Assembly: GCA_942493145.1 (NCBI GenBank)
Contig: OW818679.1
Span: forward strand, 1,623,552 to 1,687,551
DNA length: 64,000 nt
Direction of reading: 5' to 3'
Source of the DNA: an uncultured Bacillota bacterium
GTDB taxonomy: Bacteria > Bacillota > Clostridia > Acetivibrionales > DTU013
Under the pieces are notes generated by a model. The model ran no database searches and had not been told where the DNA came from. It was given only the letters and a program-made list of their open reading frames with translations. Of the stretch, positions 1,021 to 45,025 are shown in pieces. How positions within the stretch are numbered: the first letter of the stretch is position 1; each line of letters opens with the position of its first letter. The position numbers and the translations under genes were made by a program.

Positions 1021-2511
1021 CTAAAATTTCTGGGGAAAAGCAGGAAGACCGTCAAATAGAGGATGTCCTTTTTCATTCTTGATTCTCGCTGCTCTCATAG
1101 CCGCCGCCTTGTATCGGTCATAATCGGCCAAACTGGAAATAGAGATTTTTTGGGCTTGTAATGAGCCTTCCGCATGAATGGTAAGAACATCTTCGTAGCA
1201 GGAGGTCAGATCCTTTATCAGCTTCATCATCTTAATTCTGTTTTCAGTTGGGACGCCGTCCTTGCCGCCAAGATATTTATCCAATATATCGTGCGTTTCA
1301 GGGTTCATATAATCTTTGGCCGATGGTACGGTGACCATGATTCCGCCCGTGAGATCCTGAATATATTTGGTTGCCTGATGCCAATTGTCAGCAAAATAGT
1401 ATTTGCAGATGTTGGCAATCATGGGATTTGGATATGAATATCCGGTATCCTCGTCTGTAATACAATGCTCAACAGCAGTGTTTCCAAGGATCTCTACAGT
1501 TTCAGCAAACATAACGAGCTGTGTCAAATATTCTTTAACATGTGGTGCTTTGGAAATCCCGTTATACTCAGCCATTAATATTGCGGATCCTGTAAACAGC
1601 TCGAGTTCTATAGCTTTGTAAGTCTCGGCGCTCAGACGATGGAAATTGGCGAACATAATTGCCACTTCGCCGGCAAATTCCCATTCTCCTTTTAAGAATA
1701 TACGTTCATTCGGAATAAATACATTTTCAAAAGCGACTATAGCGTCGTTGATATAAACGCTGCCAGAAATCGGCTTGTCCATAAGATCAAAATCTATATT
1801 AAGCTCTGGTTCTGTGGAGATCATAGTTATCCCCTCGGCATTAGCAGGAATAGCAAAAGCAACTGCATAGTCCCTGTCATCTTTCTTCATGGCCCGGCAG
1901 GGAGCTACTAAGATTTCGTTGCAGGCGGGAGCTTGACTGATATGAGCCTTGCAGCCGCTGACGATAATTCCATCCGCTCTTTCTTCCACGATACGCACAT
2001 AAAAATCTTTATGCTGTTTCTGCTGTGAAGGAATAAGGCTCCGATCACCCTTAACGTCAGTTAAGGCCATGGCGAATGCCAAATCGTTTTTTTGTAAGTG
2101 TTTACGGTAGGCTTGTATATTTGCGGCATAATGAGTGCCATATTTTTTGTCAACTTTCGGAGCTACTGTTGTAAGTGCGTTCAAACCATCCTTGGCAACA
2201 AATTTTGCCCCTGGGGGCTTGCCAAATGTGGTGCGGGCCCATAGCTTAACAACTTCACGAAGCCTTAGAAGATCCTCTCTGGTGCGTTGCGGTTGTAAAG
2301 AAAAAGCAACTCTATCACCGTCTTTGTCAATATCAGTAAGTAAATCCTGAAATTTCGGATCATTGCTCAGGACGTAATCCATTGCAACCCAATCATTACA
2401 AATGTTCAAAATTGGGTGCGTAGTAACATCTTCTACTCTTTTTCCTTCAATATAGACAACTCTTCCATCTCTAAGGCTTTCCAGGTATTGTTGCGGAGTT
2501 TTAAGTGCCAT
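1021..2511 (-). CDS. 4-hydroxyphenylacetate 3-hydroxylase / 4-hydroxybutyryl-CoA dehydratase (HpaB/AbfD) family protein
   Basis: 496 aa. The N-terminus PQQYLESLRDGRVVYIEGKRVEDVTTHP and the overall length are typical of the family. An RBS (aaggaaaggatg) precedes the ATG. Confidence 0.7.
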   Translation of the reverse strand: MALKTPQQYLESLRDGRVVYIEGKRVEDVTTHPILNICNDWVAMDYVLSNDPKFQDLLTDIDKDGDRVAFSLQPQRTREDLLRLREVVKLWARTTFGKPPGAKFVAKDGLNALTTVAPKVDKKYGTHYAANIQAYRKHLQKNDLAFAMALTDVKGDRSLIPSQQKQHKDFYVRIVEERADGIIVSGCKAHISQAPACNEILVAPCRAMKKDDRDYAVAFAIPANAEGITMISTEPELNIDFDLMDKPISGSVYINDAIVAFENVFIPNERIFLKGEWEFAGEVAIMFANFHRLSAETYKAIELELFTGSAILMAEYNGISKAPHVKEYLTQLVMFAETVEILGNTAVEHCITDEDTGYSYPNPMIANICKYYFADNWHQATKYIQDLTGGIMVTVPSAKDYMNPETHDILDKYLGGKDGVPTENRIKMMKLIKDLTSCYEDVLTIHAEGSLQAQKISISSLADYDRYKAAAMRAARIKNEKGHPLFDGLPAFPQKF

Positions 2512-3025: not shown

Positions 3026-4405
3026 TTATTTTTTGTTGATCTGGCAGGGAATTGTATTGACATCCACGTTCTCATTACGGTTTTCGTTCAAATAGGGGAA
3101 ACGGGATACTATAGCACGGATTTCCTTTTGCCGGGTTCCGGGATTTCCCCAGAGGATGGTTACTTCTGTGCCCAATTGGCTGTAAGCAGTATCAATTGAG
3201 CAAAGGGATATCATTTTCCGGTAATAATAGCTGTAATTCCGTCCCGAGCTGATGCCGATAACCTTACCGTCCTTCAACACCTTATCGGCAAAAAAGGTGA
3301 TATTGCCATGCAGCTGTCCGAAGTGGTTCGGCCCCATGGGCATGTAGTGATCGCCAGGCTGGAATTCCGAGGCATATACGTCGATGATGTCTTCAGAATT
3401 CCATTCAAGAGTTACCATTGTCCGGGTAGGATTTGCGGCTTCCTTTTCCAGCGCTGCACGTCCGATAAAATCATGATCAAATTTTACTGCTTTTTCCCAT
3501 CCCAATTCAATGGGATTGCGGTAGCGAAGGGTTATGTCGTCTCCCATGCTGCCCTGAAGAGGGAATGAATATCCTGGCATTTTCAAAAATTGCAGAAGCC
3601 CCGGATCTTCGCCCCATGCATAAGGGAAATGCATAAAGGATTGGGGGAAGCCATCTTCCGTATGGTTCAGCTGATAGGCCAGGAATCCAAGCTTGGTGAT
3701 TCCAAAGGATTCGCCTGCATTCATAAGAGCATTGTATATCATGCGTGCATCCACGGGATTGCAATGGACTTCATAAGCAAGAGTTCCTGCCATACCCAAC
3801 CGTACAATTCGCACCTCAACGTCGTTTATCTTGCTCTTGCGATGCTTTGCGAATTTAATGTCATGCAAGCATTCACCTGTCGCAGTCTCCAATATTTCCA
3901 GCGACCGCGGTCCCCCAAGCTGAAGAGTGCAGAGATCGTTGACAAATTCGCCGGTGATATTGTATTTGTTACTGGTATAGAGCTTGTATGCAGCATAGGG
4001 AGCTAAAAAGAACGTCAGGAATTCTTCTTCATCGATGCGCATCAATACGCCGTGAGCCATAATATTTCCGCTTTCACCACACATAATGCAGTGCTTCAGT
4101 GAGCCGATCGGGAATTTTGCATAGCTGTTGACACTGATATCGGAGAAAAATTTAATTGCATCCGGCCCCTTAACCCGGAAAATGGGAGCTGCATTAAGTC
4201 CGGCATGAAGATAACAGCTTTTTTTCCATGACATAACTTCCTCGCGCCAGCCTTTGTACTCATAAGGTACGGCACAGTCGTAACCAAGGCCATATGCTTT
4301 ACTGTACACATACAGGTCTACCTGAGGGTCGAAGGGTGCAAATACCGGGAGCGGAAAAGATTTTTCCACCTCGGGTCCGGCATAGGATACATCTTTGCTT
4401 TCCAT
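3026..4405 (-). CDS. Aminomethyltransferase (GcvT) family protein, LigM/DesA-like tetrahydrofolate-dependent aryl O-demethylase
   Basis: 459 aa. The segment NPIELGWEKAVKFDHDFIGRAALEKEAANPTRTMVTLEWNSEDIIDVYASEF matches, from memory, the conserved LigM block (VKFDHDFIGRDALE...VTLAWN...IYASLF). RBS aggaggt is present. Confidence 0.65.
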   Translation of the reverse strand: MESKDVSYAGPEVEKSFPLPVFAPFDPQVDLYVYSKAYGLGYDCAVPYEYKGWREEVMSWKKSCYLHAGLNAAPIFRVKGPDAIKFFSDISVNSYAKFPIGSLKHCIMCGESGNIMAHGVLMRIDEEEFLTFFLAPYAAYKLYTSNKYNITGEFVNDLCTLQLGGPRSLEILETATGECLHDIKFAKHRKSKINDVEVRIVRLGMAGTLAYEVHCNPVDARMIYNALMNAGESFGITKLGFLAYQLNHTEDGFPQSFMHFPYAWGEDPGLLQFLKMPGYSFPLQGSMGDDITLRYRNPIELGWEKAVKFDHDFIGRAALEKEAANPTRTMVTLEWNSEDIIDVYASEFQPGDHYMPMGPNHFGQLHGNITFFADKVLKDGKVIGISSGRNYSYYYRKMISLCSIDTAYSQLGTEVTILWGNPGTRQKEIRAIVSRFPYLNENRNENVDVNTIPCQINKK

Positions 4406-11895: not shown

Positions 11896-12075
11896 TATTT
11901 TGAAAATAAAGATAATACTAAGAATAATGAAGCAATTGGCTATGAAATAATTAGAGAAATTGCGGAGAATGAGGATAACAATTCGAAGATCTTTTATCCG
12001 CAAATTTCCGGATATAAAGGCCAGCTGTTAATGGATTACATGAATCAAAGCCTGGAAAAAATTGTTGGCGTATAG
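11896..12075 (+). pseudogene. Decayed fragment resembling the start of a DUF4163-type (RsiV-ectodomain-like) protein
   Basis: A start-less frame encodes ...GYEIIREIAENEDNNSKIFYPQISGYKGQLLMDYMNQSLEKIVGV*. A short out-of-frame ATG ORF with an RBS lies just upstream, which suggests a frameshift or truncation. Confidence 0.3.
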
Positions 12076-12219
12076 GATTTTAGGCCCGAGGGTGAATATA
12101 AAAGGATTCCTGGAATCTGTAACACCTGACACATATGCTCTTGAATTGCCGTATTTACTACAATATACTATATTAGAACAGAAGTTACAATTGTAACGGC
12201 AAAGTATATGGAGGACACA

Positions 12220-12336
12220 ATGAAGGTGCTATATCTTACTTCTACAGGGAACAGCTTATATGTAGCAAAGAGAATCGGTGCGCGGTATATCAATCAACAT
12301 ATTACGCTGAAGGACATCATCAATTCAAATAAATAA
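12220..12336 (+). pseudogene. Truncated flavodoxin-like gene (first ~20 residues recognisable, 38 aa total)
   Basis: RBS ggagga precedes the ATG. MKVLYLTSTGNSLYVAKRIG is the canonical flavodoxin-fold N-terminus, but the frame stops after 38 codons. Confidence 0.4.
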
Positions 12337-12416
12337 GATCATAGTCTGCAGCTTCTGAGTATAAAGTCTTCAAGAGATGAACGTACTTAATGATAGACAT
12401 TTATTAAAGGGAGAGG

Positions 12417-12950
12417 ATGAGAATGCCAAAAGCACGAAAAATGCTAAGTGACTGGGACGCACCGTATATTCAGTCGCTTGTGAAATTAATTGAAACACAG
12501 AGCAAGGCAACTCTTGCGATTTGGTCAGTTGATTATGCCGAGCGAGTTATATTGCCGCTGTGGAGCAAGTACTATCCGGATGACCTGCGTCCGCGAAATG
12601 CACTGAATGCCGCTCGCGAGTGGTTATCGGGAGCGATAAAACTGCCGCGAGCAAAAACGGCAATCCTTGTGTGCCATGCGGCCGCCCGTGAAGCCGATGC
12701 GAACCCTGTTGCGCAAGCCGCCGCCAGGGCGAGCGGTCAATCTGCGTCGACTATTCACTCGGCAAGGCACTGTATTGGACTTGCGCTTTATGGAGCGATA
12801 GCGGTTGCGTATAACACTCTCGGAACGAACGCGACCTGGGAGCAGTTGGAGCAATGTGCCGCCGACGAGTGCCAACGTATGCTTGACGCGCTGCGTTCCG
12901 TTGCCGTGGAGAACGAACCAAACCCGGCGAAAATTGACTGGAAATGCTGA
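12417..12950 (+). CDS. Imm-5-like putative immunity protein (all-alpha), orphan
   Basis: The pattern WSVDYAERVLPLW...DLRPRNALNAAREWLSG...CHAAAREA..PVAQAAARASGQSASTIH matches the family as I recall it. GC is high (39/60 hand-counted at 12661..12720). Confidence 0.55.
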   Translation: MRMPKARKMLSDWDAPYIQSLVKLIETQSKATLAIWSVDYAERVILPLWSKYYPDDLRPRNALNAAREWLSGAIKLPRAKTAILVCHAAAREADANPVAQAAARASGQSASTIHSARHCIGLALYGAIAVAYNTLGTNATWEQLEQCAADECQRMLDALRSVAVENEPNPAKIDWKC

Positions 12951-13254
12951 CTATGACTCGCCAAAATTAAAGCACTCCGTATATCGTCGTTATTGATAAC
13001 AAAGGCATTGGAAGGATAGCTGGAGCAGGCCTGTATGGTGTGGTGACCAACTTGCTACTAAATCCATTGTTTTAATAATTTTTTACATATATAATAAATT
13101 GTAAAAAGCTTTAGCTTCAGATATATTCAGTGAGTATTGTTTGCAGGAGCAACCACGAGAATGATTACAAACAAGCTTGGAATGTCGCTGTCCACAATAC
13201 CATTTTATTTTGGGAGTTTTCGAGATCATTAAATTAAGCTATGAGAGGTACTCA

Positions 13255-15858
13255 ATGAATAATAAAGATCAGACCTTTTTCAAAAGTACAGGCTACTCAG
13301 CATTTTCCAACGGCTCACATGTGGCTGCGGTCGATGTGAAGGATGGAAAAATAATAAGGATACGTCCCTTTCGCTACGATTGGAAGTACGATCATGAGCA
13401 TATCAGACCATGGAAGATCGAGGCGCGAGGTAAGACCTTTCATGCCCCAATGAAGACTGCAGTAGGGCCTTTCGGTCTCGGGTATAAGAAGAGTATCTAT
13501 TCACCCAATCGCATATTGTATCCAATAAAGCGGGTAGACTGGGATCCCAAAGGAGAAAGAAATCCCCAGAACAGAGGCAAGAGCGGATACGCTCGTATCT
13601 CATGGGATGAAGCCCTCGATATTATAGAAAGTGAAATCAGACGGGTCATAGACAAGTATGGCCCCACTGCAATCTTAGCACAGGTAGACGGACACGGCGA
13701 GACCAAGATCGTTCATGGTCCGCATGGATGTCATTGGAAGCTGCTGAATCTTCTGGGCGGAGCTACCTTATCGGTTCGCAATGCGGACAGCTGGGAAGGG
13801 TGGTACTGGGGCGCCAAGCATTTCTGGGGGGGGGAACCTTTCGGGTGCATGCCCGAACCCTCCAATCTGTACCTGGACGTGTGCAGGCACAGCGAAATGC
13901 TTCTCTTTGAAGGTTGCGATCCTTGTACAACAACACGAGGGTTCAACAGCGGCGATCATGTCAGCCGTTTCTGCTTCTTCTTCAGAGAGCTCGGTATCAA
14001 ACAAATATACATATGCCCGGATGTGAACTATGGGGCGGCTGTTTTTGCGGATAAATGGATCCCTATTCTGCCGAACACCGATGCGGCTCTGCATCTGGCA
14101 ATTGCATATCAGTGGATCGTAAATGACACCTGGGATAAGGGCTACATTGCTACGCATTCTGTGGGATTTGAAAAGTTTGCCGACTATGTCATGGGCAAGG
14201 AAGACGGCATCCCCAAGACACCCCGGTGGGCTTCGGAGAAGTGCGGCGTTCCCTCGCGGTTGATCAAGGCACTCGCCAGGGAGTGGGCCGTCAAACGTAC
14301 GACGGTAGTTCACGGTTTCGGTGGTCCGTATATCAGGGGGCCTTTTTCTCATGAACCGGCCAGGACTGAGGCAGCCCTCCTGGCCATGCAGGGACTCGGC
14401 AAACCGGGTCAGCATTCGTTCTCCCTCATCAACCGGGCGGTCTTCGGTTCAGAGGATCATCCGGCTTATCCGCCTACGCCGGGCAGCATCATGAATAACC
14501 CGCAGATGAACGTCCGCGCGGCTTATCAGGGATACAACCCTTTCCCCTGGCTAGGACTGCCGAAACAGATGATCCCTAAGACGTTGGTACACGACGCTAT
14601 CCTGAACGGGCATTTCGAGATTCATGGGTCTTCGTTGCAGGTAACCCCGGCCTCGGAGCAGTTTATCAAGTACAAGTACCCAGCCGAAGGATGCTCTCCC
14701 ATCCACATGATCTGGTCTGACACACCGAGCTTGATGTCCTGCTGGAACGATTCCAACAAGATAGCCAAAGCATTTCAGCACGAGTCGATCGAGTTCTTCA
14801 TGATGCAACATCCCTGGATGGAGAACGACTGCATGTTTGCCGATCTCATTCTGCCGGTGAACACCAAGTTCGAAGAAGATGACATCTGCGACGACAACGA
14901 GAGTGCGGCTTTTGAGATGGTGTATCTTGAGAAGAAATGCATCGAGCCGCTCGGCGAATCGCTGAGTGACTATGAGATCGTGTGCAAGGTTGCCGAGAGA
15001 TTCGGTCTGTTGAAGGAATATACGGACGGCAGGTCGGTTGAGGAATGGATCAAGCATGGATTTGACAATTGCGGTGTTCCAGCGAAGGGACTCCTGACAT
15101 GGGAAGAGTTCAAGGAGAAGGAGTACTGGGTGGCTCCGGTCGATCCAAAGTGGGAGACCTATCCGGCCGGTATGTACAGGTTCTATGAGGATCCGGCGAA
15201 CAACCCGCTTTCCACTCCTTCCGGTCTTCTTGAATTTGAGTCTTTGGACTTAAAGAAATTTTTCCCTGAAGATAAAGAGAGACCGCCCGTACCGCATTGG
15301 GTGGAGAAAAGTGAGCTCCACGACGAGCGCATCGGCGGTGAAAGAGCTAAGGAGTATCCGCTGCTGGTCATCAGCAATCATCCGCGCCACAGGATGCACT
15401 CTCAACTTGACGACAACAACTGGTTTCACGAGATCGTTACCTGCAAGGTACGAGGATCAGACGGTTATCTTTATGAGCCTTTGTGGCTGCATCCGTCGGA
15501 AGCGGCCAGGAGGAATATCGTTGACGGCGACATCTGCAAGATATACAACGAGAGGGGCGGAGTCCTGGTAGGTGCCAGGGTCTGGGAAAGAATCATGCCT
15601 GGAGTCGCTTATGTGGAGCATGGGTCGAGGGCGGATTTCATCGTTCCGGGAGAACTGGACCGGGGCGGAGCAATCAACCTCATTACACCTCACAATACCA
15701 CCTCCAGGAATTGCGCGGGCATGGCGTGCAGCGGCTTCCTTGTTGAGGTCGAGAGGGCCGATATGGATGAACTGCGGCGCCAATACCCGGAGGCGTTTAA
15801 CAGACCTTACGACAAGGCTTCCGGGCTGACATTCGACCGGGTGATCATTAAGGGATAG
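13255..15858 (+). CDS. Molybdopterin oxidoreductase, pyrogallol-phloroglucinol transhydroxylase large-subunit-like
   Basis: 867 aa from the ATG at 13255 (RBS gagagg 6 nt upstream; the track start 13177 adds an unlikely leader). VDVKDGKIIRIRP, WKIEARGKTF, ISWDEALD and DSWEGWYWG resemble the P. acidigallici enzyme. There is no RR Tat motif and no N-terminal Cys cluster. Confidence 0.7.
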   Translation: MNNKDQTFFKSTGYSAFSNGSHVAAVDVKDGKIIRIRPFRYDWKYDHEHIRPWKIEARGKTFHAPMKTAVGPFGLGYKKSIYSPNRILYPIKRVDWDPKGERNPQNRGKSGYARISWDEALDIIESEIRRVIDKYGPTAILAQVDGHGETKIVHGPHGCHWKLLNLLGGATLSVRNADSWEGWYWGAKHFWGGEPFGCMPEPSNLYLDVCRHSEMLLFEGCDPCTTTRGFNSGDHVSRFCFFFRELGIKQIYICPDVNYGAAVFADKWIPILPNTDAALHLAIAYQWIVNDTWDKGYIATHSVGFEKFADYVMGKEDGIPKTPRWASEKCGVPSRLIKALAREWAVKRTTVVHGFGGPYIRGPFSHEPARTEAALLAMQGLGKPGQHSFSLINRAVFGSEDHPAYPPTPGSIMNNPQMNVRAAYQGYNPFPWLGLPKQMIPKTLVHDAILNGHFEIHGSSLQVTPASEQFIKYKYPAEGCSPIHMIWSDTPSLMSCWNDSNKIAKAFQHESIEFFMMQHPWMENDCMFADLILPVNTKFEEDDICDDNESAAFEMVYLEKKCIEPLGESLSDYEIVCKVAERFGLLKEYTDGRSVEEWIKHGFDNCGVPAKGLLTWEEFKEKEYWVAPVDPKWETYPAGMYRFYEDPANNPLSTPSGLLEFESLDLKKFFPEDKERPPVPHWVEKSELHDERIGGERAKEYPLLVISNHPRHRMHSQLDDNNWFHEIVTCKVRGSDGYLYEPLWLHPSEAARRNIVDGDICKIYNERGGVLVGARVWERIMPGVAYVEHGSRADFIVPGELDRGGAINLITPHNTTSRNCAGMACSGFLVEVERADMDELRRQYPEAFNRPYDKASGLTFDRVIIKG

Positions 15859-15868
15859 GAGCGAGAAT

Positions 15869-16699
15869 ATGGGGAAAGTAATGGTAATAGATATAAATAA
15901 GTGCAACGGGTGCTACAATTGCCAGTTATCATGCAAAGATGAGCATGTCGGCAATGATTGGTCCCCGATTGCCAAACCACAGCCGGACATCGGACACTTC
16001 TGGCACAAAATTACAGAGCATGTGCAGGGCAGTGTGCCCAAAGTTCGGGTGCGGTACATGCATGACCTTTGTCAGCATTGTGACACAGCCCCCTGCATTC
16101 CTGCGTGCAAATCGCAGGCCTTCTACAGGCGCGATGACGGACTAGTGATTCTTGATCCGGAGAAATGCAGAGGGACCCGTTCCTGCATAGAGGCTTGTCC
16201 GTATGGATCTATATATTTCAACACCGATTTGAATATTGCGCAGAAGTGCACCGGCTGTGCCCATTTGCTGGATAACGGCTGGGCAGAGCCGCGCTGTGTG
16301 CAGGCCTGCCCGACGGATGCCCTGATATTCGGAGAGGAGTCTGAGCTCCAGGATTTTATCGCCAAGGCTGAATTGCTGAATCCAGATTTGAAAACTGGAT
16401 CTCGTGTGTATTATATCGGTCTTCCAAACAAGTACTTCATTGCAGGTGAGGTGTATGACCCCGATGCTGACGAATGTCTCGAGGGAGCAACTGTCACGCT
16501 CGCAGATGCGAGTGGCAATATAATAGCTTCTCTGAAAACCGATGTGTACGGTGACTTCTGGTTCGAGCGCCAGGAGCCAGGGCAGTATTTACTAAAGATA
16601 GAGAATGACGGCTATTTTTCAAAGTCGATTGATAAGATTGATGCGATCAAAGACATCAACGTGGGGAGTATCGAGCTACACCAAGTATCAACGAAATGA
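15869..16699 (+). CDS. 4Fe-4S ferredoxin-type beta subunit with C-terminal carboxypeptidase-regulatory-like beta-sandwich (transhydroxylase small-subunit-like)
   Basis: Cys motifs are CNGCYNCQLSC, CQHCDTAPCIPAC, CRGTRSCIEACP and CTGCAHL...CVQACP. The C-terminal GEVYDPDADECLEGATVTLADASGN...YGDFWFE is Ig-like. The start lies 10 nt after the alpha stop. Confidence 0.7.
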   Translation: MGKVMVIDINKCNGCYNCQLSCKDEHVGNDWSPIAKPQPDIGHFWHKITEHVQGSVPKVRVRYMHDLCQHCDTAPCIPACKSQAFYRRDDGLVILDPEKCRGTRSCIEACPYGSIYFNTDLNIAQKCTGCAHLLDNGWAEPRCVQACPTDALIFGEESELQDFIAKAELLNPDLKTGSRVYYIGLPNKYFIAGEVYDPDADECLEGATVTLADASGNIIASLKTDVYGDFWFERQEPGQYLLKIENDGYFSKSIDKIDAIKDINVGSIELHQVSTK

Positions 16700-16716
16700 G
16701 GTATAAGAAGTGCTGT

Positions 16717-16740
16717 GGACACCCGATATATCGGGTGTCC
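16717..16740. terminator. Perfect 24-nt palindromic hairpin between convergent genes
   Basis: ggacacccgatatatcgggtgtcc lies between the beta subunit stop (16699) and the PucR stop (16791). There is no clear T tract. Confidence 0.4.
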
Positions 16741-16790
16741 GCTTGACTGGCAATCAAGAGGTAAAGGGTTCGATCACCTTCATCTTTTCG

Positions 16791-17993
16791 TCAAAAGAAA
16801 CGTTCGCGGTCAGCATATTCCAGTATCTGAAGAGAATGTATCAAATGGAGCATCTGTAAACCGTCATTGAGATCAAGACCCAGCAATTCTGCACATTTGC
16901 TCACCCTGTACGTCACAGTATTGCGGTGTATTGTCAATGCCTGTGATGTCTTTTGTACACTTCTGTTGTGTTTGATATAGTACAATAGGGTTTTCAACAT
17001 GCCTGTATTCTGGGGACGATCATCGTTTGCAAATCCAAGAAGACCTGGCATGACATACTGCAAGGGGTCTTCAGTTTCTGCATACTTGCGGATGAATACA
17101 TATTCAATATAATCATTGTACAAATACAAATTGCAGCTGCCGTTCACGCGGCGGCCGATATCAAGCGCAGCAAGAGCCTGCTGATAATAGGCGGAAAGTT
17201 GGTTGAGCATAGAAAAACAGGAGCTTATTCCACAAATAATCCTATAGCTGTGCAAAGTTGCTTCCATTGTGTCCATCTCTTCACTGCTGATGGGTTGTTT
17301 GCGGGATAGCAGGATGATTACACAGGATCGGTACCTGATCATAAGGTCATTGGGACCGCAAAGTCCCAGTAGAAAGTCTGCACTGCTATTCTCAATGTCC
17401 TTTAATATATCGGTACACATGACATATAGATGATTGGCCAGATTCCAACCCAATAATTGTGATTTCAACTGTGCTTCCACCGGTGTAAGGGGATTTCCGT
17501 CAAGAAGATACTGCAGCAGGTATTCTGTAGCGTTGCCCCGCAGCGGATTAAGTGAAAGGTGGCTATAAACTGCAGCTGACAGTGGATAGCTCATTAGCTC
17601 CAGAATTTGGGCATCCTGCTCTGTAAAAGGCCTATAATAGGCAACGGCATTGATTTGACCGACCATAGTGCCGTTCACTCTTAAAACTTTGGAAAGCATG
17701 TTTAATCCGTTGAATTGGGATTTTACAGGCTCCTCATGGTTCAGCAGTTCTCTTATATCCCTCCTCCATGTAAGGTCTTCAGTTAGATTCGGAGTTGGAT
17801 AACGATTACTGGACATATAGCTATACATGGGATCATTTACCTCAGCATTGCTGCTGGCTAAAACCTTTAAATTCATATCAAAAATCAATACGGGATTTTC
17901 TATCAATTTAAGTGCGCAATCAGCATATTCCTGAAAATTGCGACACCTCTTTAAAGATTCAAGAAGACTTTTCAGATCAGTTTCCATACTCAT
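16791..17993 (-). CDS. PucR/CdaR-family transcriptional regulator
   Basis: The C-terminal HTH SVQKTSQALTIHRNTVTYRVSKCAELLGLDL is typical of PucR_C. The start is uncertain among the ATGs at 17993 and 17987 and the track TTG at 18023. Confidence 0.75.
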   Translation of the reverse strand: MSMETDLKSLLESLKRCRNFQEYADCALKLIENPVLIFDMNLKVLASSNAEVNDPMYSYMSSNRYPTPNLTEDLTWRRDIRELLNHEEPVKSQFNGLNMLSKVLRVNGTMVGQINAVAYYRPFTEQDAQILELMSYPLSAAVYSHLSLNPLRGNATEYLLQYLLDGNPLTPVEAQLKSQLLGWNLANHLYVMCTDILKDIENSSADFLLGLCGPNDLMIRYRSCVIILLSRKQPISSEEMDTMEATLHSYRIICGISSCFSMLNQLSAYYQQALAALDIGRRVNGSCNLYLYNDYIEYVFIRKYAETEDPLQYVMPGLLGFANDDRPQNTGMLKTLLYYIKHNRSVQKTSQALTIHRNTVTYRVSKCAELLGLDLNDGLQMLHLIHSLQILEYADRERFF

Positions 17994-18177
17994 ACCCCGT
18001 GTCAAAATTGAGATAAAGTTCAAATCAAGAACAGTATATAACGATAATCACAGCAAGTAAATATGGAATTGTGCTGTAACACAATGAATTCAAAAAAAAT
18101 TCAGGTTATATCCCAGTGTTTTGGTTCATCGTGCACATTATAATATAGATATAATAATACGAAAGCAGGTGAAATAA

Positions 18178-19071
18178 TTGCCAAGTTATGAATTTCTCCA
18201 TCGTCCCGGTAGCATATGGGAGCAGTACAAGTTCTACGAAAAGCCGCCGGAAATAATACGCAAGGAGATGGAGTCGCAGTTACTTACTTCATTCAATCCT
18301 CCCGATGGTGTACGTTGGGAACCCGGAGAATGTGGTGGTATTAGCGGGAAGTGGATCTTTCCGTCTGAAAAGTCGGACAAGGTATTGCTATATATCCATG
18401 GCGGCGGCTTTACACTGGGAAGCTCCGGAATACCTCTACCCTTTCTATGCCAATTATCACATCGTTTAAAGCTGAATTGTTTTTCTGTAGAATATGCTTT
18501 AGCGCCTGAACAGGTCTTTCCGGCAGGTGTGAATGATTGTATCGCAGCGTATGAAGGATTGCTGGATGCAGGATATGAACCGGAACAGATTGCCGTAGCT
18601 GGTGAATCTGCAGGCGGAACATTGTGTTTGTCCTTGGTCCATCATTTAAAAGCTGCCGGGCGTCCCTTGCCCAAAGCCGTTTTATCAATGTCACCCGTTG
18701 TAGATGCTGCACCCGTCAATTCCGAGTCTAGTCAACCTGGAAAGGTCCTGGAGGGACTTCCCGGAGTAGAGGAAGTAATGAAAATTTATGCCCCTGGAGC
18801 AGATTTGAAGGATCCACGTATTTCACCCATATACGGGGACTTTTCGGGTTTCCCGCCATTGTTTCTTATTGCAGGCGGAGCCGAAATGCTTTGCAGTGAG
18901 AGCCTGGCTCTTGCCAAAGTAAGTGCAGAGGCAGGAGGTGATGTGAAATTATTGATCGGGCGGGATATGATTCATACATATCCGTTGGATTTTAACGACT
19001 ATCCTGAAGCAGCAGAGGCATTTGACGAAATAGTATTGTTCATTGACCGGAAACTGGTTAAGGCAATATAA
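18178..19071 (+). CDS. Alpha/beta hydrolase, hormone-sensitive-lipase-type esterase
   Basis: Oxyanion motif YIHGGGFTLGS and nucleophile elbow GESAGG are present. TTG start with RBS aggtga. Confidence 0.8.
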   Translation: MPSYEFLHRPGSIWEQYKFYEKPPEIIRKEMESQLLTSFNPPDGVRWEPGECGGISGKWIFPSEKSDKVLLYIHGGGFTLGSSGIPLPFLCQLSHRLKLNCFSVEYALAPEQVFPAGVNDCIAAYEGLLDAGYEPEQIAVAGESAGGTLCLSLVHHLKAAGRPLPKAVLSMSPVVDAAPVNSESSQPGKVLEGLPGVEEVMKIYAPGADLKDPRISPIYGDFSGFPPLFLIAGGAEMLCSESLALAKVSAEAGGDVKLLIGRDMIHTYPLDFNDYPEAAEAFDEIVLFIDRKLVKAI

Positions 19072-19377
19072 AAGGCTATTGCATTGTAATAGAATAATGA
19101 ATGGATTTTATTTAAGAATGAGGAGGTACACATAACGGCAGAGGAGCCTTTGATCTTATCTGCCGCATTACCTGCACCATCGGTAGAATTAATCGTGATA
19201 AAGTCTGAATGAGCATAGCTCTGATAAATTGTTTTAGTTTCGTTAAAAAGTATGTATTCTGCATCTGGAATACGCCTGTGTAACCGGGATGAGCTTTATC
19301 ACAACGGATACCAAAGTTACGATAATTAACAATATTTTAATTGACACCCTTGTGCAAACTATAATACAATAAAAATG

Positions 19378-19507
19378 TTAAGAGGGAGTAGTTATAAATT
19401 ACAAAGTCAACATACTGGTGTTAACTGCATCTGGCTTTGTTACCTAAAAGGTTAACGAGACTTTTAACATAATCCGTTTATCGGGGTTATGTTATGAGTC
19501 TTTTTTT
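19378..19507 (+). promoter_or_regulatory. yybP-ykoY (Mn2+) riboswitch with intrinsic terminator expression platform
   Basis: Conserved elements are AGAGGGAGUAG, AAAGUCAACAUACUGG and GGUUAACGAGAC. The terminator stem GAGACUUUUAACAUAA/UUAUGUUAUGAGUC plus a U7 run re-uses the GAGAC. A possible promoter is TTGACA (19341) -18- TACAAT (19365). Confidence 0.75.
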
Positions 19508-19554
19508 ATACTCATATACATGCCACAAACAAAAGATTTGAAAGGATTGGAAAA

Positions 19555-20313
19555 ATGTATCAAACTCTGACTGTATTTCTTATTTCTGCAGGAGCCGTTA
19601 CTTTAGCTGAGATGGGCGACAAGACTCAGCTCCTTGCTATGGCATTTGCTACCAGGTACAAGGCATCAAAAGTTCTAATCGGAGTATTTTTAGCAACGGT
19701 TCTTAATCATGCATTTGCGGTTGCGTTAGGTAATTTCGTAACTCGCTATCAAGCAATTGATTTATGGGTACAAATTATTGCATCTCTATCATTTATATTT
19801 TTTGGTTTATGGACCATTCGTGGTGACAAACTTGAGGGAGAAGAAAACCGCAAGACACGATTTGGTGCTGTTATGACAGTCGCCATAGCGTTTTTCATTG
19901 CTGAACTTGGGGACAAGACACAGTTAACTACTATTGCACTTGCCGCAAAATTTCCTGAAAATCCTGTTGGGATTTTGATGGGAACAACTACTGGTATGCT
20001 AATTGCAGATGCTATTGGAATAATTGTTGGTGTTGTAATGTGTAAGAAAATACCTGAAAGGACTATTAAACTTGTATCAGCAGGTGCATTCATATTCTTT
20101 GGCTTGCTTGGCAGTTATCAAGTTGCAGATAACAAACTTAATTTGAACCATGGACTTATTGCTGCAATCCTGGTTTTGATTGCAGTTTTAACTGGTTTGG
20201 CAGCATGGCAGCTTATTAAGAAGAGAAGTAAAGAAGAAACGAATAATCCTGTAGTTGCTGAATATTGTGTAGTTAAACCGTTAACTGAAAATTCAAACGG
20301 CGAATTAGGATAG
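19555..20313 (+). CDS. TMEM165/GDT1 (UPF0016) family cation (Mn2+/Ca2+) transporter
   Basis: The signature E-x-G-D-K-T motif occurs twice (AEMGDKTQ and AELGDKTQ) in a polytopic membrane protein. It lies directly downstream of the Mn riboswitch. Confidence 0.85.
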   Translation: MYQTLTVFLISAGAVTLAEMGDKTQLLAMAFATRYKASKVLIGVFLATVLNHAFAVALGNFVTRYQAIDLWVQIIASLSFIFFGLWTIRGDKLEGEENRKTRFGAVMTVAIAFFIAELGDKTQLTTIALAAKFPENPVGILMGTTTGMLIADAIGIIVGVVMCKKIPERTIKLVSAGAFIFFGLLGSYQVADNKLNLNHGLIAAILVLIAVLTGLAAWQLIKKRSKEETNNPVVAEYCVVKPLTENSNGELG

Positions 20314-20346
20314 TAGATACTATGTAATTTTGTAGTAGTATTATAC

Positions 20347-20388
20347 AAAAAACAGTGCCGATTTTTCAAAAGATCGGCACTGTTTTTT
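20347..20388. terminator. Bidirectional Rho-independent terminator
   Basis: aaaaaacagtgccgat / atcggcactgtttttt forms a 16-bp stem flanked by A and T runs. It sits between the convergent transporter and MCP genes. Confidence 0.8.
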
Positions 20389-20461
20389 ACTATTTAATAA
20401 GAAAGCAGGACATATCTGCTATATTGCATCTAGTAATCCTTGCTTCTTATTTGATATATGG

Positions 20462-22234
20462 TCACAGTTTAAATTCATCAGCCAGCCTGATCAACGACTC
20501 CGAACTTTCCATGGATCCCTTCGAGAGCCTGGATACCTCATTGGCTTTTTCTACGACCGACGATATTTTTTCAGCTATGTTTGCTGTGCCCGCCGAACCT
20601 TCATTGGCAGCGGCTGCAACTTCGGCTATAGCCTTGAGCATATTCTGTATGGAAGCCATCAGCTGCCGGGTGGTTGCACTGAAATCACTCACCAGGTCAT
20701 TTACATAATCGGCGTCGTTGCTGTAATTTTCACCTATCCTTACCATAGTCTCATAATCTTTTATAACCTGCTTGTCTATGAATTCAAGAACATTTCCCGA
20801 ATGGCTTGAAAGCTGTTGTACCGCAGATATGACAGAATTTGTGACTGTCTGGATCTCCGATACCGCTTTGCCGGATTCCTCGGAAAGCTTTCTGATCTCG
20901 TCGGCCACTACAGCGAAGCCTTTCCCGGCATCGCCTGCCCTTGCCGCCTCTATTGCAGCGTTAAGTGCCAGCAGGTTGGTTTGTTCAGCTATGGAGAGGA
21001 TTGCATCAGTAAGTTCACTGATCCTTCCGACTGCATTTGAATTTTCAATTGCTTTTGTAAGGTTGACGCTGCTTTTCTTGTAAACCTCGATTGCGCTGTT
21101 GCGGGAATCTATGGCATTTGTCCTGAGCTCCGACGCCCTTGTATGTATTTCGGACGCCTTGCCGGACCCTTCCTGTGCCTTAGCGGCTATGGTACCGATT
21201 GCGGATTCGATCTCCGTTGAAGCAGCAGTCATCTCCTGGGTGGAGGCAGCAGTTTCCTCCATACCTGCGGAGAGCTCTTCAGTTGTGGCGGACACGTCTT
21301 CCACCTCTTCAAGAAGTTCAATTATGTTAGTGTCGGACTGGCCGATAAGACCTCCGACCTTGCCTGCTGCTTCGATAGTGCTGCTTATAAGGCCTCTGAG
21401 ACTGACCACCATATTATCAAGGGAGCGCATGAGGTCTCCGATTTCATCATTGCTCTTGTCCTTTTTTGAAATTTCAACGGTCAGGTTGCCGTTGGCTACG
21501 GAATTCAGTGATATTACAGCTTTCTTGAGCGGACGTGTTATACTCAGCATTATTAAGATGCAAAGTATAAGAAGGATTATAAATGAGATTATACAAACTA
21601 TCACAAGAATCATATTATTTTGATCGCTTTGCCTGAGGTAATCCTCATTGCCCCTGACGGCCGATTCCTTCAAGGATGTGCTGAGGCTGTCAAAATTGAC
21701 CTTGAGCTCCACCAGCTGCGCCTTCATTTCCTTATTGACCGTACCCAGGTCCGAGAACTTGAAATCCGCAGCCAGAGCAGGGAGGACCTGATACTCGAAA
21801 AGTGAAATCAGGTTTTCCATTCCGAGTTTTATCATAAGTGCTGTTGCTTCCTCATTTTCGGAAAGCTCCATTGAAAGAAGCTTGTCTTCCGTTTTGTATA
21901 TGTTTGACTTTAAGCTTTCCCAGTTGGCTTGGTCAACCATGCCGTCAAGTATTGAGTTGGCTAAAAGCTTGTAAATCTGATCTGTATAATTGGAGAGCTC
22001 AACAGCGCTGAGGGAGAGTTCAGCCCTGCTATTGCTGTCAGTGTGAAGCTTTACCATTTTTTTAATGGTTACAAATGAGATCGTGGATATGATAAGTACG
22101 ACAACGAGGGATACAGCCAGCATTAAGATCAGTCTTGCCTTGATGGTTGCCCTGAAGACCGGTCTTACAATTTTTGTGCCTTTTTCGGATTTTCCGGCAA
22201 ACTTAGTTTTTGCGGTTTTTTCGTTTAACATCAT
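20462..22234 (-). CDS. Methyl-accepting chemotaxis protein
   Basis: TM helix, ligand-binding region, second TM, HAMP domain, then the conserved signalling domain ([36 protein letters not shown]). I prefer the ATG at 22234 (RBS gagaggaag) to the track start 22279. Confidence 0.9.
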
Positions 22235-43351: not shown

Positions 43352-43445
43352 AAATTTATAAGATTACAAATTTAACTTGAATGAAATATATAATCCGTTT
43401 TTAGCTGGATTATATATTTTATTTTTAAGGAAGGATGGGAACGTT

Positions 43446-44168
43446 ATTACTACTGGTGCTCCATTGTATTACAAAGTATATAATGCATTAAGAAACAAAA
43501 TTGAGGCGGGAGAATTCTCAAAAGGCGATTTATTGCCTACTGAACTCGAATTGGAAAATTTATTCAAAGTGAGTAGGATAACGATACGAAAAGCTATTGA
43601 AATGCTCTCTAACGAAGGTTTTGTTGCAACAAGACAGGGTAAGGGTACAGAGGTACTTGATCCAAAAACTACGCAGAAATTGAATAGTGTTACCTCCTTT
43701 TCTGAGACCCTGTTGGAAAAAGGTTATAATGTTTCATCAAAGAATGTACAGATTGAACTTATAAAACCTCCTGGCCGCGTGGCTTCAGAACTCAAAATCG
43801 ACCTTGACACTGAAGTTGTTAGAGTTTACAGAATCAGGCTGGCTAATGATAAGCCGATAGCAATTATGATTAATTATTTACGGGCAGAAATGGTCCCGGG
43901 AATAGAAAGTAAGATTAATATGGCTGATTCTCTTTATCGCTTTTTGGAGACTGAGTATAATATTGTATTTGACAGTGCTGTTGAGAATATAGGTGCCAGA
44001 GCGGCAGGTACTACAGAGGCTGAAATGCTTCAAATACCCGAAGGGGCACCTTTGATTACAAGCAGGAGGGTCACTTCCGCTGATGGTAAACCCATTGAAG
44101 TTGTTGTCTCAAGTATAGTAGCAGATAAATATGAGTACAAGGTTTTTCTAAAAGGCAGACCGGCATAA
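43446..44168 (+). CDS. GntR/HutC-family transcriptional regulator (winged HTH + UTRA), paralog 1
   Basis: PLYYKVYNALRNKIEAGEF...LPTELELENLFKVSRITIRKAIEMLSNEGFVATRQGKGTEV followed by a UTRA domain. The proposed ATT start at 43446 lies behind SD aaggaagga. The track TTG at 43377 has no RBS and would translate through the SD. Confidence 0.75.
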   Translation: MTTGAPLYYKVYNALRNKIEAGEFSKGDLLPTELELENLFKVSRITIRKAIEMLSNEGFVATRQGKGTEVLDPKTTQKLNSVTSFSETLLEKGYNVSSKNVQIELIKPPGRVASELKIDLDTEVVRVYRIRLANDKPIAIMINYLRAEMVPGIESKINMADSLYRFLETEYNIVFDSAVENIGARAAGTTEAEMLQIPEGAPLITSRRVTSADGKPIEVVVSSIVADKYEYKVFLKGRPA

Positions 44169-44302: not shown

Positions 44303-45025
44303 ATTTCTACAAGTGCACCGCTGTATCATAAGGTATATAGCTCTTTAAGAAACAAAATAGAAGTTGGAGAATATATAAAAGGCGATTTTCTTCCGACCGA
44401 GCAAGAATTACAAAATCAATTTAACGTAAGCAGAATAACAATTAGAAAAGCAGTAGAAATTCTGTCAAATGAAGGTTTTGTAGCTACAAGACAGGGTAAG
44501 GGCACCGAAGTTCTTGATCCAAAGACAACGCAGAAATTAAATTATGTCACTTCATTTACAGAAACTTTATCGGAAAAAGGTTATAATGTTTCATCGGAAA
44601 ACGTGCAGGTAGATTTTATTAAGCCACCCAGCCGTGTGGCTTCTGAACTCAAAATTGATCAAAATACTTATGTAGTAAGGATATACAGAATAAGACTGGC
44701 TAATGACATACCTATTGCGATTATGATCAATTATTTATCGGCGGAAATAGTTCCGGGGATTGAAAAGAAAATCAAATTGATTGGTTCTCTTTACCGCTTT
44801 TTAGAGTCGGAATATAATATCGTAATCGATTGCGCAGTTGAAAATATCGGAGCCAGATCTGCGGGTGTCACTGAAGTGGAAATGCTTCAGGTATCTGAGG
44901 GTACACCACTTCTCACCAGTAGACGCATTACCTTCAGTAACGGTAAACCTATAGAAGTTGTAATATCCAGTATTGTCGCTGATAGATACGAGTATAACGT
45001 GTTCCTGAATGGAAGGCCGGGTTAG
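44303..45025 (+). CDS. GntR/HutC-family transcriptional regulator, paralog 2 (full length, missed by the ORF track)
   Basis: The frame is open from the stop at 44282..44284 to 45025 and is colinear with paralog 1 over 240 codons. The only ATG/GTG/TTG codon is at 44603. A conserved ATT at 44303 lies behind SD ggagagga. Confidence 0.65.
   Translation: MSTSAPLYHKVYSSLRNKIEVGEYIKGDFLPTEQELQNQFNVSRITIRKAVEILSNEGFVATRQGKGTEVLDPKTTQKLNYVTSFTETLSEKGYNVSSENVQVDFIKPPSRVASELKIDQNTYVVRIYRIRLANDIPIAIMINYLSAEIVPGIEKKIKLIGSLYRFLESEYNIVIDCAVENIGARSAGVTEVEMLQVSEGTPLLTSRRITFSNGKPIEVVISSIVADRYEYNVFLNGRPG

Follow-up and report, generated by a model that had tools for sequence, protein, structure and literature searches.

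What does a two-subunit molybdoenzyme do in a spore-forming anaerobe, and how much of the unusual DNA around its genes arrived with them? We address this in a window of 64,000 nucleotides (the whole stretch of DNA analysed) from an uncultured Bacillota bacterium. A preliminary description had read the locus as a single acquired polyphenol module, built around an enzyme of the pyrogallol-phloroglucinol transhydroxylase (TH) type and including a PucR regulator and an esterase.

The alpha subunit (13255..15858, + strand) is an 867-aa Mo-bisPGD catalytic subunit, and an identical 867-aa product was found in NCBI. A Pfam search assigned it AhtL-like_1st (PF21423), Molybdopterin (PF00384), and Molydop_binding (PF01568) domains. 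Its best PDB match is the TH of Pelobacter acidigallici (AthL/BthL = PgtL; PDB 4V4C/4V4D/4V4E; EC 1.97.1.2), with an E value of 2.5e-146 and 492 bits to 4v4c_A versus 2.9e-81 and 277 bits to DorA, and the blocks WKIEARGKTF, ISWDEA, and DSWEGW(Y/H)WG line up with TH. The beta subunit (15869..16699, + strand; 276 aa) comprises Fer4_11 followed by a C-terminal CarboxypepD_reg beta-sandwich and also matches TH best (4v4c_B, E 2e-52; 182 bits vs 109). The TH-type architecture that had been proposed is therefore confirmed by domains and PDB matches alike: TH is likewise a cytoplasmic alpha-beta heterodimer, with an alpha subunit of ~870 aa that has an AhtL-like first domain and lacks a Tat signal and an FS0 cluster, and a beta subunit of ~275 aa in which ferredoxin-like domains are combined with a beta-sandwich at the C-terminus. 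Inspection of the alpha sequence found no RR motif or Tat signal and no Cys in the first 140 residues, and a survey of ORFs and domains found no membrane anchor or chaperone among the neighbours, both as previously described. The sequence supports a cytoplasmic, soluble molybdoenzyme.

Placement in a tree agrees with the earlier grouping with TH but narrows it. In a neighbour-joining (not maximum likelihood) tree, the alpha subunit falls within a TH-like superclade (bootstrap 94) that leaves DMSO, TMAO, and nitrate reductases outside; there it belongs to a "query-type" subclade (bootstrap 100) separate from the TH clade (98), and it is the sister of TH in 0/100 replicates. Identity to TH is 36% for alpha and 37% for beta. 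The resorcinol hydroxylase RhLS of Azoarcus anaerobius (UniProt A0N0U2) is in the same superclade, yet over the N-terminal 400 residues of RhL that the comparison covers it is 58.6% identical to TH and 39.6% to our protein, and it sits with TH. On these sequence grounds, the pair is a distant paralogue of TH, not an orthologue, and lies outside the clade holding TH and RhL. These two are both of the characterised enzymes of the family and share another, small clade; the query-type subclade is very large, populous, and essentially uncharacterised, with no characterised member, as the preliminary remark on a scarcely characterised clade had anticipated. Acetylene hydratase and the catechol dehydroxylases of Eggerthella and Gordonibacter (Dadh, Cldh, and others) are likewise Mo/W-bisPGD enzymes, grouped here as anaerobic modifiers of aromatic hydroxyl groups, but they form a different branch: in the literature, the catechol dehydroxylases fall near acetylene hydratase and apart from TH (PMC7028382), and a comparison of acetylene hydratase with our protein gives only 54 bits.

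Around the metal, the query-type alphas resemble TH. Alignment places Ser179 of the motif D178-S179-W180 as the Mo ligand, next to a conserved His147, and TH has the same Ser ligand in a D-S-W motif and the same conserved His; TH positions His144, Asp174, Ser175, and Trp176 are invariant in query-type alphas. The remainder of the pocket differs. In all 120 close homologues, Gly replaces Tyr152 of TH, Pro replaces Arg153, and the loop carrying Tyr560 is missing; Tyr404 is not conserved among them, nor is Trp354 in our protein. Tyr404 and the Tyr560 loop are reportedly part of the second-substrate site of TH. The numbering was confirmed against the TH sequence, and the roles given to the pocket residues are those reportedly described for TH.

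The beta subunit differs from that of TH as well. All Cys ligands of the three TH-type [4Fe-4S] clusters are present, and analysis of Cys columns found an additional site made of Cys80, Cys100, and Cys106, where TH has Gly, Ala, and Leu. This is a fourth, distal Fe-S site, predicted to be of the [3Fe-4S] type; since only three of its four ligand positions are Cys, the other being Thr103, that a cluster occupies it is likewise a prediction. When the second Cys of group III is lost, a [3Fe-4S] cluster reportedly results. Pocket type and site number co-vary: in 90 adjacent pairs, which are not phylogenetically independent, query-type alphas are paired with a four-site beta in 60 of 73 cases and TH-type alphas with a three-cluster beta in 16 of 17 (Fisher p = 4.5e-9). 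Close homologues that have no adjacent beta also exist (L087 and L001).

We favour, at a probability of roughly 0.55, an acquired, soluble cytoplasmic Mo-bisPGD/Fe-S enzyme of the TH/RhL family that carries out redox hydroxylation or dehydroxylation of a hydroxylated aromatic compound. The query-type subclade keeps the core of the catalytic site (the Ser ligand of Mo, the Asp next to it, and the conserved His) and lacks the residues that build the pyrogallol and co-substrate sites of TH. A hydroxylated aromatic would bind at Mo, a hydroxyl group would be added from water or removed, and two electrons would be exchanged with a soluble partner, e.g., ferredoxin, by way of the four-cluster beta subunit. 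The net reaction would be a redox hydroxylation or dehydroxylation as in resorcinol hydroxylase, not a redox-neutral, co-substrate-mediated isomerisation as in TH. RhLS hydroxylates a phenol in a redox reaction with water (PMC10100899), the chemistry proposed here. Since no query-type member is characterised, both the redox chemistry and the aromatic substrate class are extrapolated. Loci of relatives encode TRAP and MFS transporters, IclR, TetR, and sigma-54 regulators, and SDRs, an aromatic or organic-acid catabolic context that we count in favour of this reading, and TH-type pairs occur within 8 kb in ~10% of the loci (in direct tandem in L083). Beside the cassette, the window has no redox partner, transporter, or downstream pathway.

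An unlikely reading is a redox-neutral transhydroxylase that works like TH on another pair of phenol donor and acceptor, with beta clusters that have no catalytic role. It would fit the shared superclade, the shared alpha-beta architecture, and the preserved His/Asp/Ser core, and extracts of P. acidigallici reportedly perform several hydroxyl transfers. The absence of the Tyr560 loop and the Tyr404 position throughout the subclade argues against it, and an extra distal Fe-S site that co-varies with pocket type is hard to explain in a non-redox enzyme.

Automatic annotation points away from aromatics altogether, to an S-/N-oxide reductase or other oxo-transferase, which we consider improbable. 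The best NCBIfam matches of alpha are bisC_fam, dmsA, and torA, JGI names of cluster members are of the "TMAO reductase" or "S/N-oxide reductase-like" kind, and homologue contexts are heterogeneous and seldom diagnostic. All of these NCBIfam matches are, however, far below cutoff (bisC_fam 359 vs 1017.55; torA 296 vs 1465), and the tree separation (bootstrap 94) opposes them. Within the Ser-ligated MopB group, no non-TH enzymes are closer than DorA, TorA, and BisC (PMC10100899), but these lack a beta subunit, whereas our enzyme has a dedicated one with the TH-specific C-terminal domain, and DorA-type representatives have Trp and Tyr in the active site where every TH-like protein has His144 and Asp174.

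The leading idea of the preliminary description, an isofunctional pyrogallol-phloroglucinol transhydroxylase feeding a phloroglucinol pathway, we now regard as very improbable. TH is the full-length best PDB match, studies of MAGs label such pairs accordingly (PMC3971608, PMC4959651), and an LpdD-like gallate-decarboxylase component lies ~7 kb from an 88%-identical homologue in locus L081. Against this stand the identity of only 36-37%, the position outside the TH/RhL clade, the non-conservation of Tyr152, Arg153, Trp354, Tyr404, and Tyr560, and the different cluster complement of beta; because the TH (co-)substrate residues are missing and beta has an extra Fe-S site, pyrogallol-to-phloroglucinol activity is unlikely. 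TH-type pairs carrying a "YKYY" signature stand next to query-type pairs of one and the same locus as distinct paralogues. The phloroglucinol pathway with PGR, cyclase-family DPGC, and BKACE/TAL has been described (PMC10470551), and none of these genes is present in the window or in L081. The 64-kb window has no other polyphenol or phloroglucinol-pathway gene, so the polyphenol module stays a hypothesis drawn from membership in the TH family.

The alpha-beta genes form a cassette (13240..16685, + strand) in common with foreign contigs, with 84.7% DNA identity over 3,448 bp to two loci (L081 and L082) and 77% to two more (L083 and L084) by blastn. Homology begins ~15 bp upstream of the alpha ATG and stops at the end of beta; these four contigs have 55-57% GC in cassette and flanks alike, and the cassette occurs in unrelated contexts in L081, L083, L086, and L087. 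The deviation in composition exceeds what chance would give: GC3 in the atypical block is 0.53-0.62, compared with 0.40 +/- 0.07 in the remaining 46 genes (z-scores 2-3), and 13501-16500 is the top tetranucleotide outlier among 123 3-kb windows (z = 4.06); the earlier hand counts of GC (39/60, 33/60, and 22/60) were exact on recount. Lateral acquisition of the cassette by this spore-forming anaerobe is supported.

To its left, an Imm5-like single-gene module (12413..12956, + strand; gene 12417..12950, 177 aa, GC 0.54; Pfam Imm5_like E 4.7e-38) belongs to a set of more than 120 clusters with 80-91% aa identity across phyla and has a dN/dS of 0.14-0.16. Its 87-91% DNA homology to two loci (L167 and L168) is limited to 12413..12956, the gene there has 55% GC within flanks of 43-47% GC, and none of 166 AthL-like loci carries it. 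As judged from the limits of DNA homology, the Imm5-like gene is separately mobile and was gained independently of the cassette, and the "island" is a composite of these two modules, not the single block previously proposed. An AT-rich spacer lies between them (12957..13239, + strand; GC 0.36), with sigma-70-like sites upstream of alpha at 13052-13079 and 13099-13127 that are consensus matches only; it has no homology to the relatives' loci, and the region upstream of the cassette is not the donor's. Of two decayed gene fragments described further left, a host-like, low-GC ORF of 42 aa (12208..12336, + strand) is probably what remains of the N-terminal part of a ferredoxin/flavodoxin-like gene of the EFR1 family: residues 7-41 weakly match positions 1-35 of 242 in NCBIfam NF038196 (E 4e-5; 23.8 bits, below the cutoff of 75), and it had no Pfam match. 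For 11896..12075, we found no support as a decayed gene.

That the cassette is an inert passenger, unexpressed or without physiological role in this host, is a most improbable reading despite the lack of cognate regulator, transporter, and pathway genes, the flanking orphan Imm5-like and native genes, and the non-donor upstream region, given that both ORFs are intact and keep every cofactor ligand, a good ribosome-binding site (GAGAGG, 7 nt upstream of the alpha start) and promoter-like sites are present, and purifying selection is evident (dN/dS 0.08 for alpha and 0.14 for beta at dS ~0.7, divergence most of which may predate transfer).

To the right, a perfect 24-nt palindrome (GGACACCCGATA/TATCGGGTGTCC; 16717..16740, no strand assigned) lies between the convergent genes, 18 nt past the beta stop. 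It folds into a 12-bp RNA stem (region z = -3.07) and could serve as an operator or as a hairpin at the transcript end; no T-tract lies 3' of it, and the terminator scan made no call. The gene convergent with beta encodes a PucR/CdaR-family regulator (HTH_30 and GGDEF_2; 16791..18023, - strand), and across a common 154-bp divergent intergenic region lies an HSL-family (GESAG-type) alpha/beta-hydrolase esterase (18178..19071, + strand; Pfam Abhydrolase_3 E 6e-46; 178 bits to NCBIfam GESAG_HSLs, below the 430 cutoff). The atypical composition claimed for the whole block holds for the Imm5-like gene and the cassette and does not extend to these two genes (GC3 0.44 and 0.41; tetranucleotide z = -0.94 for 17001-20000): the regulator (GC 0.42) has host-like composition and is therefore probably native, and the codon composition of the esterase is host-like. 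Counterparts occur in 0-2 of 166 related loci; none has a PucR homologue, and weak, family-level esterase matches (25-26%) were found in L045 and L069 only. Both genes look native and not linked to the molybdoenzyme homologues, and their assignment to the module was not upheld. What the locus presents is an enzyme from an uncharacterised subgroup that is related to, yet clearly different from, the two studied enzymes of its family.

The alpha subunit (13255..15858, + strand) is an 867-aa Mo-bisPGD molybdopterin oxidoreductase in which an AhtL-like first domain (PF21423, 47.2 bits against a Pfam cutoff of 27) is followed by the Molybdopterin (PF00384) and Molydop_binding (PF01568) domains. The 867-aa reading matches the NCBI record, and the gene is preceded by the ribosome binding site GAGAGG. 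The AhtL-like domain stands where the Cys motif of an FS0 cluster would be; alpha has no twin-arginine (RR/Tat) motif and no Cys within its first 140 aa, which bears out the preliminary description. Among all PDB sequences, the large subunit of the pyrogallol-phloroglucinol transhydroxylase (TH; AthL/PgtL) of Pelobacter acidigallici matches alpha along its whole length (4v4c_A, E 2.5e-146, 492 bits), and DorA/TorA come next (217-277 bits). The 276-aa beta subunit (15869..16699, + strand) combines a Fer4_11 domain with a C-terminal CarboxypepD_reg beta-sandwich, and its top PDB match is the small subunit of TH (4v4c_B, E 2e-52, residues 5-268), ahead of PsrB/NrfC-type proteins. By BLASTP, alpha is 36% and beta 37% identical to TH. 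The alpha-beta pair, hereafter the query, is a member of the TH/RhL (AthL/PgtL-RhL) family of Ser-ligated Mo-bisPGD enzymes, RhL being the large subunit of the Azoarcus anaerobius resorcinol hydroxylase. The open reading frames lie where they had been placed, the domain scans match every label given to them, and the three alpha blocks quoted as TH-like do align with TH.

Alpha scores below the cutoffs of all its best NCBIfam models (bisC_fam, 359 against 1017.55; torA, 296 against 1465; dmsA, far below). Because of these scores and the top PDB match to TH, a grouping with DMSO, TMAO or nitrate reductases was not seen; instead, a neighbour-joining tree of 79 sequences (57 full-length representatives, 20 close homologues, TH, and the query; 100 bootstraps) places alpha in a TH-like superclade that is separated from DorA/TorA/BisC-like sequences at 94/100. 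The S-/N-oxide reductases of the DorA/TorA/BisC type are monomeric and have an active-site Trp and Tyr, which DorA-like representatives carry at the positions of TH-like His144 and Asp174, whereas the query has His and Asp there and a beta subunit; with its sub-cutoff scores, membership in that group was rejected. Catechol dehydroxylases are grouped in the literature with that other enzyme type, acetylene hydratase (PMC7028382), and the comparison with them was therefore dropped: acetylene hydratase (2e7z) reaches 54 bits against alpha, compared with 492 for TH, and the FS0 cluster and frequent Tat export of that clade are both missing from the query.

A word-indexed search with alpha returned more than 6,000 matches (top match 85% identical, PF21423 in all of the 120 best), and an exhaustive search of a library of 50%-identity protein clusters returned 5,871, of which 659 had E <= 1e-30. 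In the 79-sequence neighbour-joining tree, the subclade of the query is supported in 100/100 replicates and the TH clade (TH and the cluster representatives P0275 and P0260) in 98/100, and the two were sisters in 0/100. Orthology with TH (EC 1.97.1.2 sensu stricto) was rejected on this basis; the likeness to TH noted in the preliminary description stands for family and architecture but not for orthology, given 36%/37% identity and a separate subclade. The N-terminal ~400 residues of RhL (PMC7327174 supplement 4), compared pairwise and kept outside the full tree, are 58.6% identical to TH and 39.6% to the query. Because of the tree support and these identities, TH, which is redox-neutral, and RhL, a redox hydroxylase, both of them characterised enzymes, fall within a single small clade to which the query does not belong.

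In sister clades within the TH-like superclade (representatives P0243-P0282), Tat signals (S/TRRDFL) are present and the N-terminus is extended by 50-130 aa; several of their members differ in the core, where Asp174 or Trp176 is replaced. The Tat-bearing members are apparently periplasmic relatives in a family thought of as cytoplasmic.

The active site was compared in TH numbering, which was checked on the TH sequence itself. The roles of TH residues (Ser175 as the Mo ligand, the conserved His, and the pocket and co-substrate positions) were reportedly assigned by Messerschmidt in 2004. His147, Asp178, Ser179, and Trp180 of the query correspond to His144, Asp174, Ser175, and Trp176 of TH and are invariant in 120 homologues, and His738, Arg740, Asp834, and Arg835 (TH numbering) are also kept by the query and by the 120 homologues nearest to it. 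The TH pocket (Tyr152, Arg153, Trp354, Tyr404, and Tyr560) is not found in the query: Tyr152 is replaced by Gly and Arg153 by Pro, as across 120 close homologues; Trp354 is a gap or Phe, likewise among these homologues; Tyr404 is Pro in a variable loop (mostly Pro among the 120); and the insertion bearing Tyr560 is deleted in the query and in all 120 closest homologues. Tyr152, Tyr404, and Tyr560 are kept by TH-clade members and by the TH-type paralogues in the loci of relatives.

Beta holds every Cys of the three clusters of TH and has three more, Cys80, Cys100, and Cys106, at positions occupied in TH by Gly, Ala, and Leu. Together with Cys110, these residues restore the canonical third motif C-x2-X-x2-C-x3-C-P, with Thr as X. 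By the rule known from DmsB and NarH, losing the second Cys of this motif yields a [3Fe-4S] cluster at the distal position, which faces the partner. Judged by its Cys pattern, the query beta would not be confined to the three [4Fe-4S] clusters of TH, and its fourth site is predicted to be a distal, partner-facing [3Fe-4S] cluster.

The type of alpha loop and the number of beta sites co-vary. Among the 90 adjacent alpha-beta pairs in 166 related loci, 60 of the 73 alphas without the Tyr560 loop are paired with a four-site beta (query-type) and 16 of the 17 with the loop (signature Tyr-Lys-Tyr-Tyr) with a three-cluster beta (TH-type), giving a Fisher p of 4.5e-9 on counts that are not phylogenetically independent. 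Query-type pairs and TH-type pairs (Tyr152/Lys153/Tyr404/Tyr560, three-cluster beta) share the loci L083, L014, L076, L088, L121/L122, and L071, and at L083:10001-16846 the two form a direct tandem that follows a TetR gene. That both types stand side by side in the same loci speaks for two functional classes and against drift, and the shared loci suggest that the two types of pair act in one pathway.

Beta directly follows alpha in 81 of 141 assessable loci, and the other 60 have no immediately adjacent beta. Two close alpha homologues without a beta gene on their 3' side are found at L087:2536-5211 (88% identical) and L001:2143-4755 (76%); the former is followed by two convergent nitrogenase-like Oxidored_nitro genes and a NifH-like gene.

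The alpha and beta genes (GC 0.53 and 0.49) and the upstream gene for an Imm5_like protein (12417..12950, + strand; GC 0.54) exceed the other genes of the window in GC (0.41 +/- 0.05) and in GC3 (0.53-0.62, z = 2.0-3.0, against 0.40 +/- 0.07). Of 123 segments compared by tetranucleotide usage, 13501-16500 stands out most (z = 4.06, rank 1), so that the composition scan found this part of the block atypical for the window, and the hand-counted GC values reported earlier proved exact. The closest homologues (contigs L081/L082, alpha 88.6% identical) align with the window at 84.7% DNA identity for 3,448 bp, exactly 13240..16685, and this cassette comprises alpha and beta only. GC is 55% in cassette and flanks alike in L081/L082, and 57% in L083; the cassette is therefore compositionally at home in these contigs and foreign in the host of the window. 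Close relatives have the pair in unrelated surroundings, which fits a mobile two-gene unit. By both composition and DNA similarity, alpha-beta is horizontally acquired. No integrase or transposase was found among the neighbours of the island, no significant flanking (att-like) repeats, and no tRNA target in the 64-kb window.

A perfect 24-nt palindrome (16717..16740) lies 18 nt past the beta stop, between convergent genes, and forms a strong hairpin (region z = -3.07) with no T-tract. A second high-GC pair (57367..58916, - strand) encodes L-serine dehydratase alpha and beta (GC 0.55/0.52, GC3 0.61/0.54).

The block proposed in the preliminary description separates into modules. The Imm5 gene (Pfam E 4.7e-38) has homologues of 80-91% aa identity in more than 120 clusters, which span MAGs of Bacillota, Bacteroidota, and Alphaproteobacteria, and its DNA homology with two of them (L167:5991-6534 and L168:5991-6534) covers only 12413..12956, stopping within 6 bp of the ORF ends. 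The gene has 55% GC even within genomes of 43-47% GC, a dN/dS of about 0.15, and an AT-rich spacer (283 bp, GC 0.36) towards the cassette, and it never occurs with AthL-like genes in the 166 related loci (0/166). With DNA homology ending at each module and no co-occurrence, Imm5 and alpha-beta are not one block; Imm5 behaves as a module separate from the cassette, with promiscuous single-gene spread.

On the other side, the PucR-type regulator (16791..18023, - strand) and the HSL/GESAG-type esterase (18178..19071, + strand) form a divergent pair, and the segment 17001-20000 over both is typical in composition (tetranucleotide z = -0.9). The PucR family is present in 0/166 related loci, and the esterase family weakly in 2/166. 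Because co-occurrence is missing and the composition is native, we rejected a functional tie to the cassette, to which position alone links them; they do not belong to the acquired block in which they had been placed. Two decayed gene fragments had been described on the left. One, a short ORF (12208..12336, + strand), matches the first 35 residues of the EFR1-family ferredoxin-like model below the cutoff (E 4e-5), which fits a truncated EFR1-family gene; the other, 11896..12075, has no Pfam match and no similarity to window proteins, and its reading as gene debris was dropped. Elsewhere in the window, a complete GntR/UTRA regulator gene (43377..44168) is followed by a 140-aa UTRA-only ORF (44603..45025), which may be a truncated paralogue.

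The neighbours of homologues are heterogeneous: TRAP and MFS transporters, IclR, TetR, and sigma-54 regulators, SDRs, and flavoproteins are among them, none in more than 11 of 80 loci. These neighbourhoods fit a catabolic enzyme that works in the cytoplasm on small organic molecules taken up by the cell, and they name no substrate. A recurrent 298-aa "neighbour family" (11 loci) was discarded, as it is probably an artefact of antisense ORFs over beta in high-GC DNA. Phloroglucinol-pathway genes have been defined in C. scatologenes (PMC10470551); neither these (PGR, DPGC, TfD, TAL) nor gallate decarboxylase genes were found in the 64-kb window, and the phloroglucinol-pathway genes are also absent from L081. 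The 88.6%-identical pair of L081/L082 is followed on its 3' side (13632-21160) by genes for a creatininase-family protein, a split transketolase, an Fe-ADH, an HpaB/AbfD-like protein, a 4-hydroxybutyrate-type CoA-transferase, and an LpdD-like protein, the last resembling a gallate decarboxylase component. We did not use this cluster to infer a substrate because no other locus among the 166 has it. Four Dehalococcoidales loci (L009, L012, L015, and L022) likewise have HpaB/AbfD-like genes close to AthL-like pairs. In the window, HpaB/AbfD-like and GCV_T-family genes (1021..2511 and 3026..4405, both - strand) are located ~11 kb upstream of the cassette, and the HpaB/AbfD-like gene is 37% identical to its L081 counterpart.

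With a probability of roughly 0.55, we read the query from its sequence as a TH/RhL-family enzyme that hydroxylates or dehydroxylates a hydroxylated aromatic in a net redox reaction. Alpha would hydroxylate or dehydroxylate the substrate at the Mo site, and electrons would be exchanged through the four-site beta. This reading is preferred because the catalytic core is retained, the co-substrate site is missing, and the distal cluster site is retained, and also because the last two traits co-vary and TH-type paralogues are often near. A redox-neutral transhydroxylase for other phenols, which would share the retained core and the redox-neutral chemistry of TH, is unlikely beside the missing co-substrate site and the additional cluster site. 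A non-aromatic substrate is less likely again. That the query is a true pyrogallol TH, as its family and architecture might invite, is very improbable, since orthology, the pocket residues, a three-cluster beta, and pathway genes in the window are all wanting. Least credible is that the cassette is an inert passenger, with dN/dS at 0.08 for alpha and 0.14 for beta and both genes therefore under purifying selection.

Beyond the redox reading of the query itself, we tentatively propose, as a possibility short of even odds, that query-type enzymes are a functionally distinct class of cytoplasmic Mo/Fe-S aromatic hydroxylases/dehydroxylases with a four-site beta and without the Tyr404/Tyr560 co-substrate site, perhaps working beside TH-type enzymes. 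Query-type enzymes are widespread in Chloroflexota, Actinomycetota, and Bacillota, and alongside TH-type enzymes they may, for example, make or consume tetrahydroxybenzene or pyrogallol-type intermediates. If they are redox (de)hydroxylases, they would add an oxygen-independent route for the modification of phenolics and alter the way in which anaerobic turnover of polyphenols is read from metagenomes. The host was placed as a spore-forming Bacillota, and the best named relatives of its GerA protein (P0121) are from Syntrophomonadaceae, at 68%. Its genome is apparently complete (4.34 Mb) and the organism may thus be cultured, in which case it would be a tractable host for deleting or expressing a single isolated cassette.

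TH-like pairs are already well known from genomes and MAGs, and genome-resolved studies of sediment, peat, and gut routinely read them as "pyrogallol fermentation" (PMC3971608, PMC4959651, PMC12203004). What is new is the subclade of the query, which is populous, departs from TH in the traits specific to TH, and includes no characterised member. The query, like most of the more than 6,000 relatives that can be detected, lacks the substrate-site residues of TH and has a different Fe-S complement. If a distinct class does stand beside the TH-type enzymes, the routine MAG label "pyrogallol transhydroxylase" would misname the greater part of the family. The significance of the finding lies less in the locus of the window than in the bearing of this subclade on such annotations.
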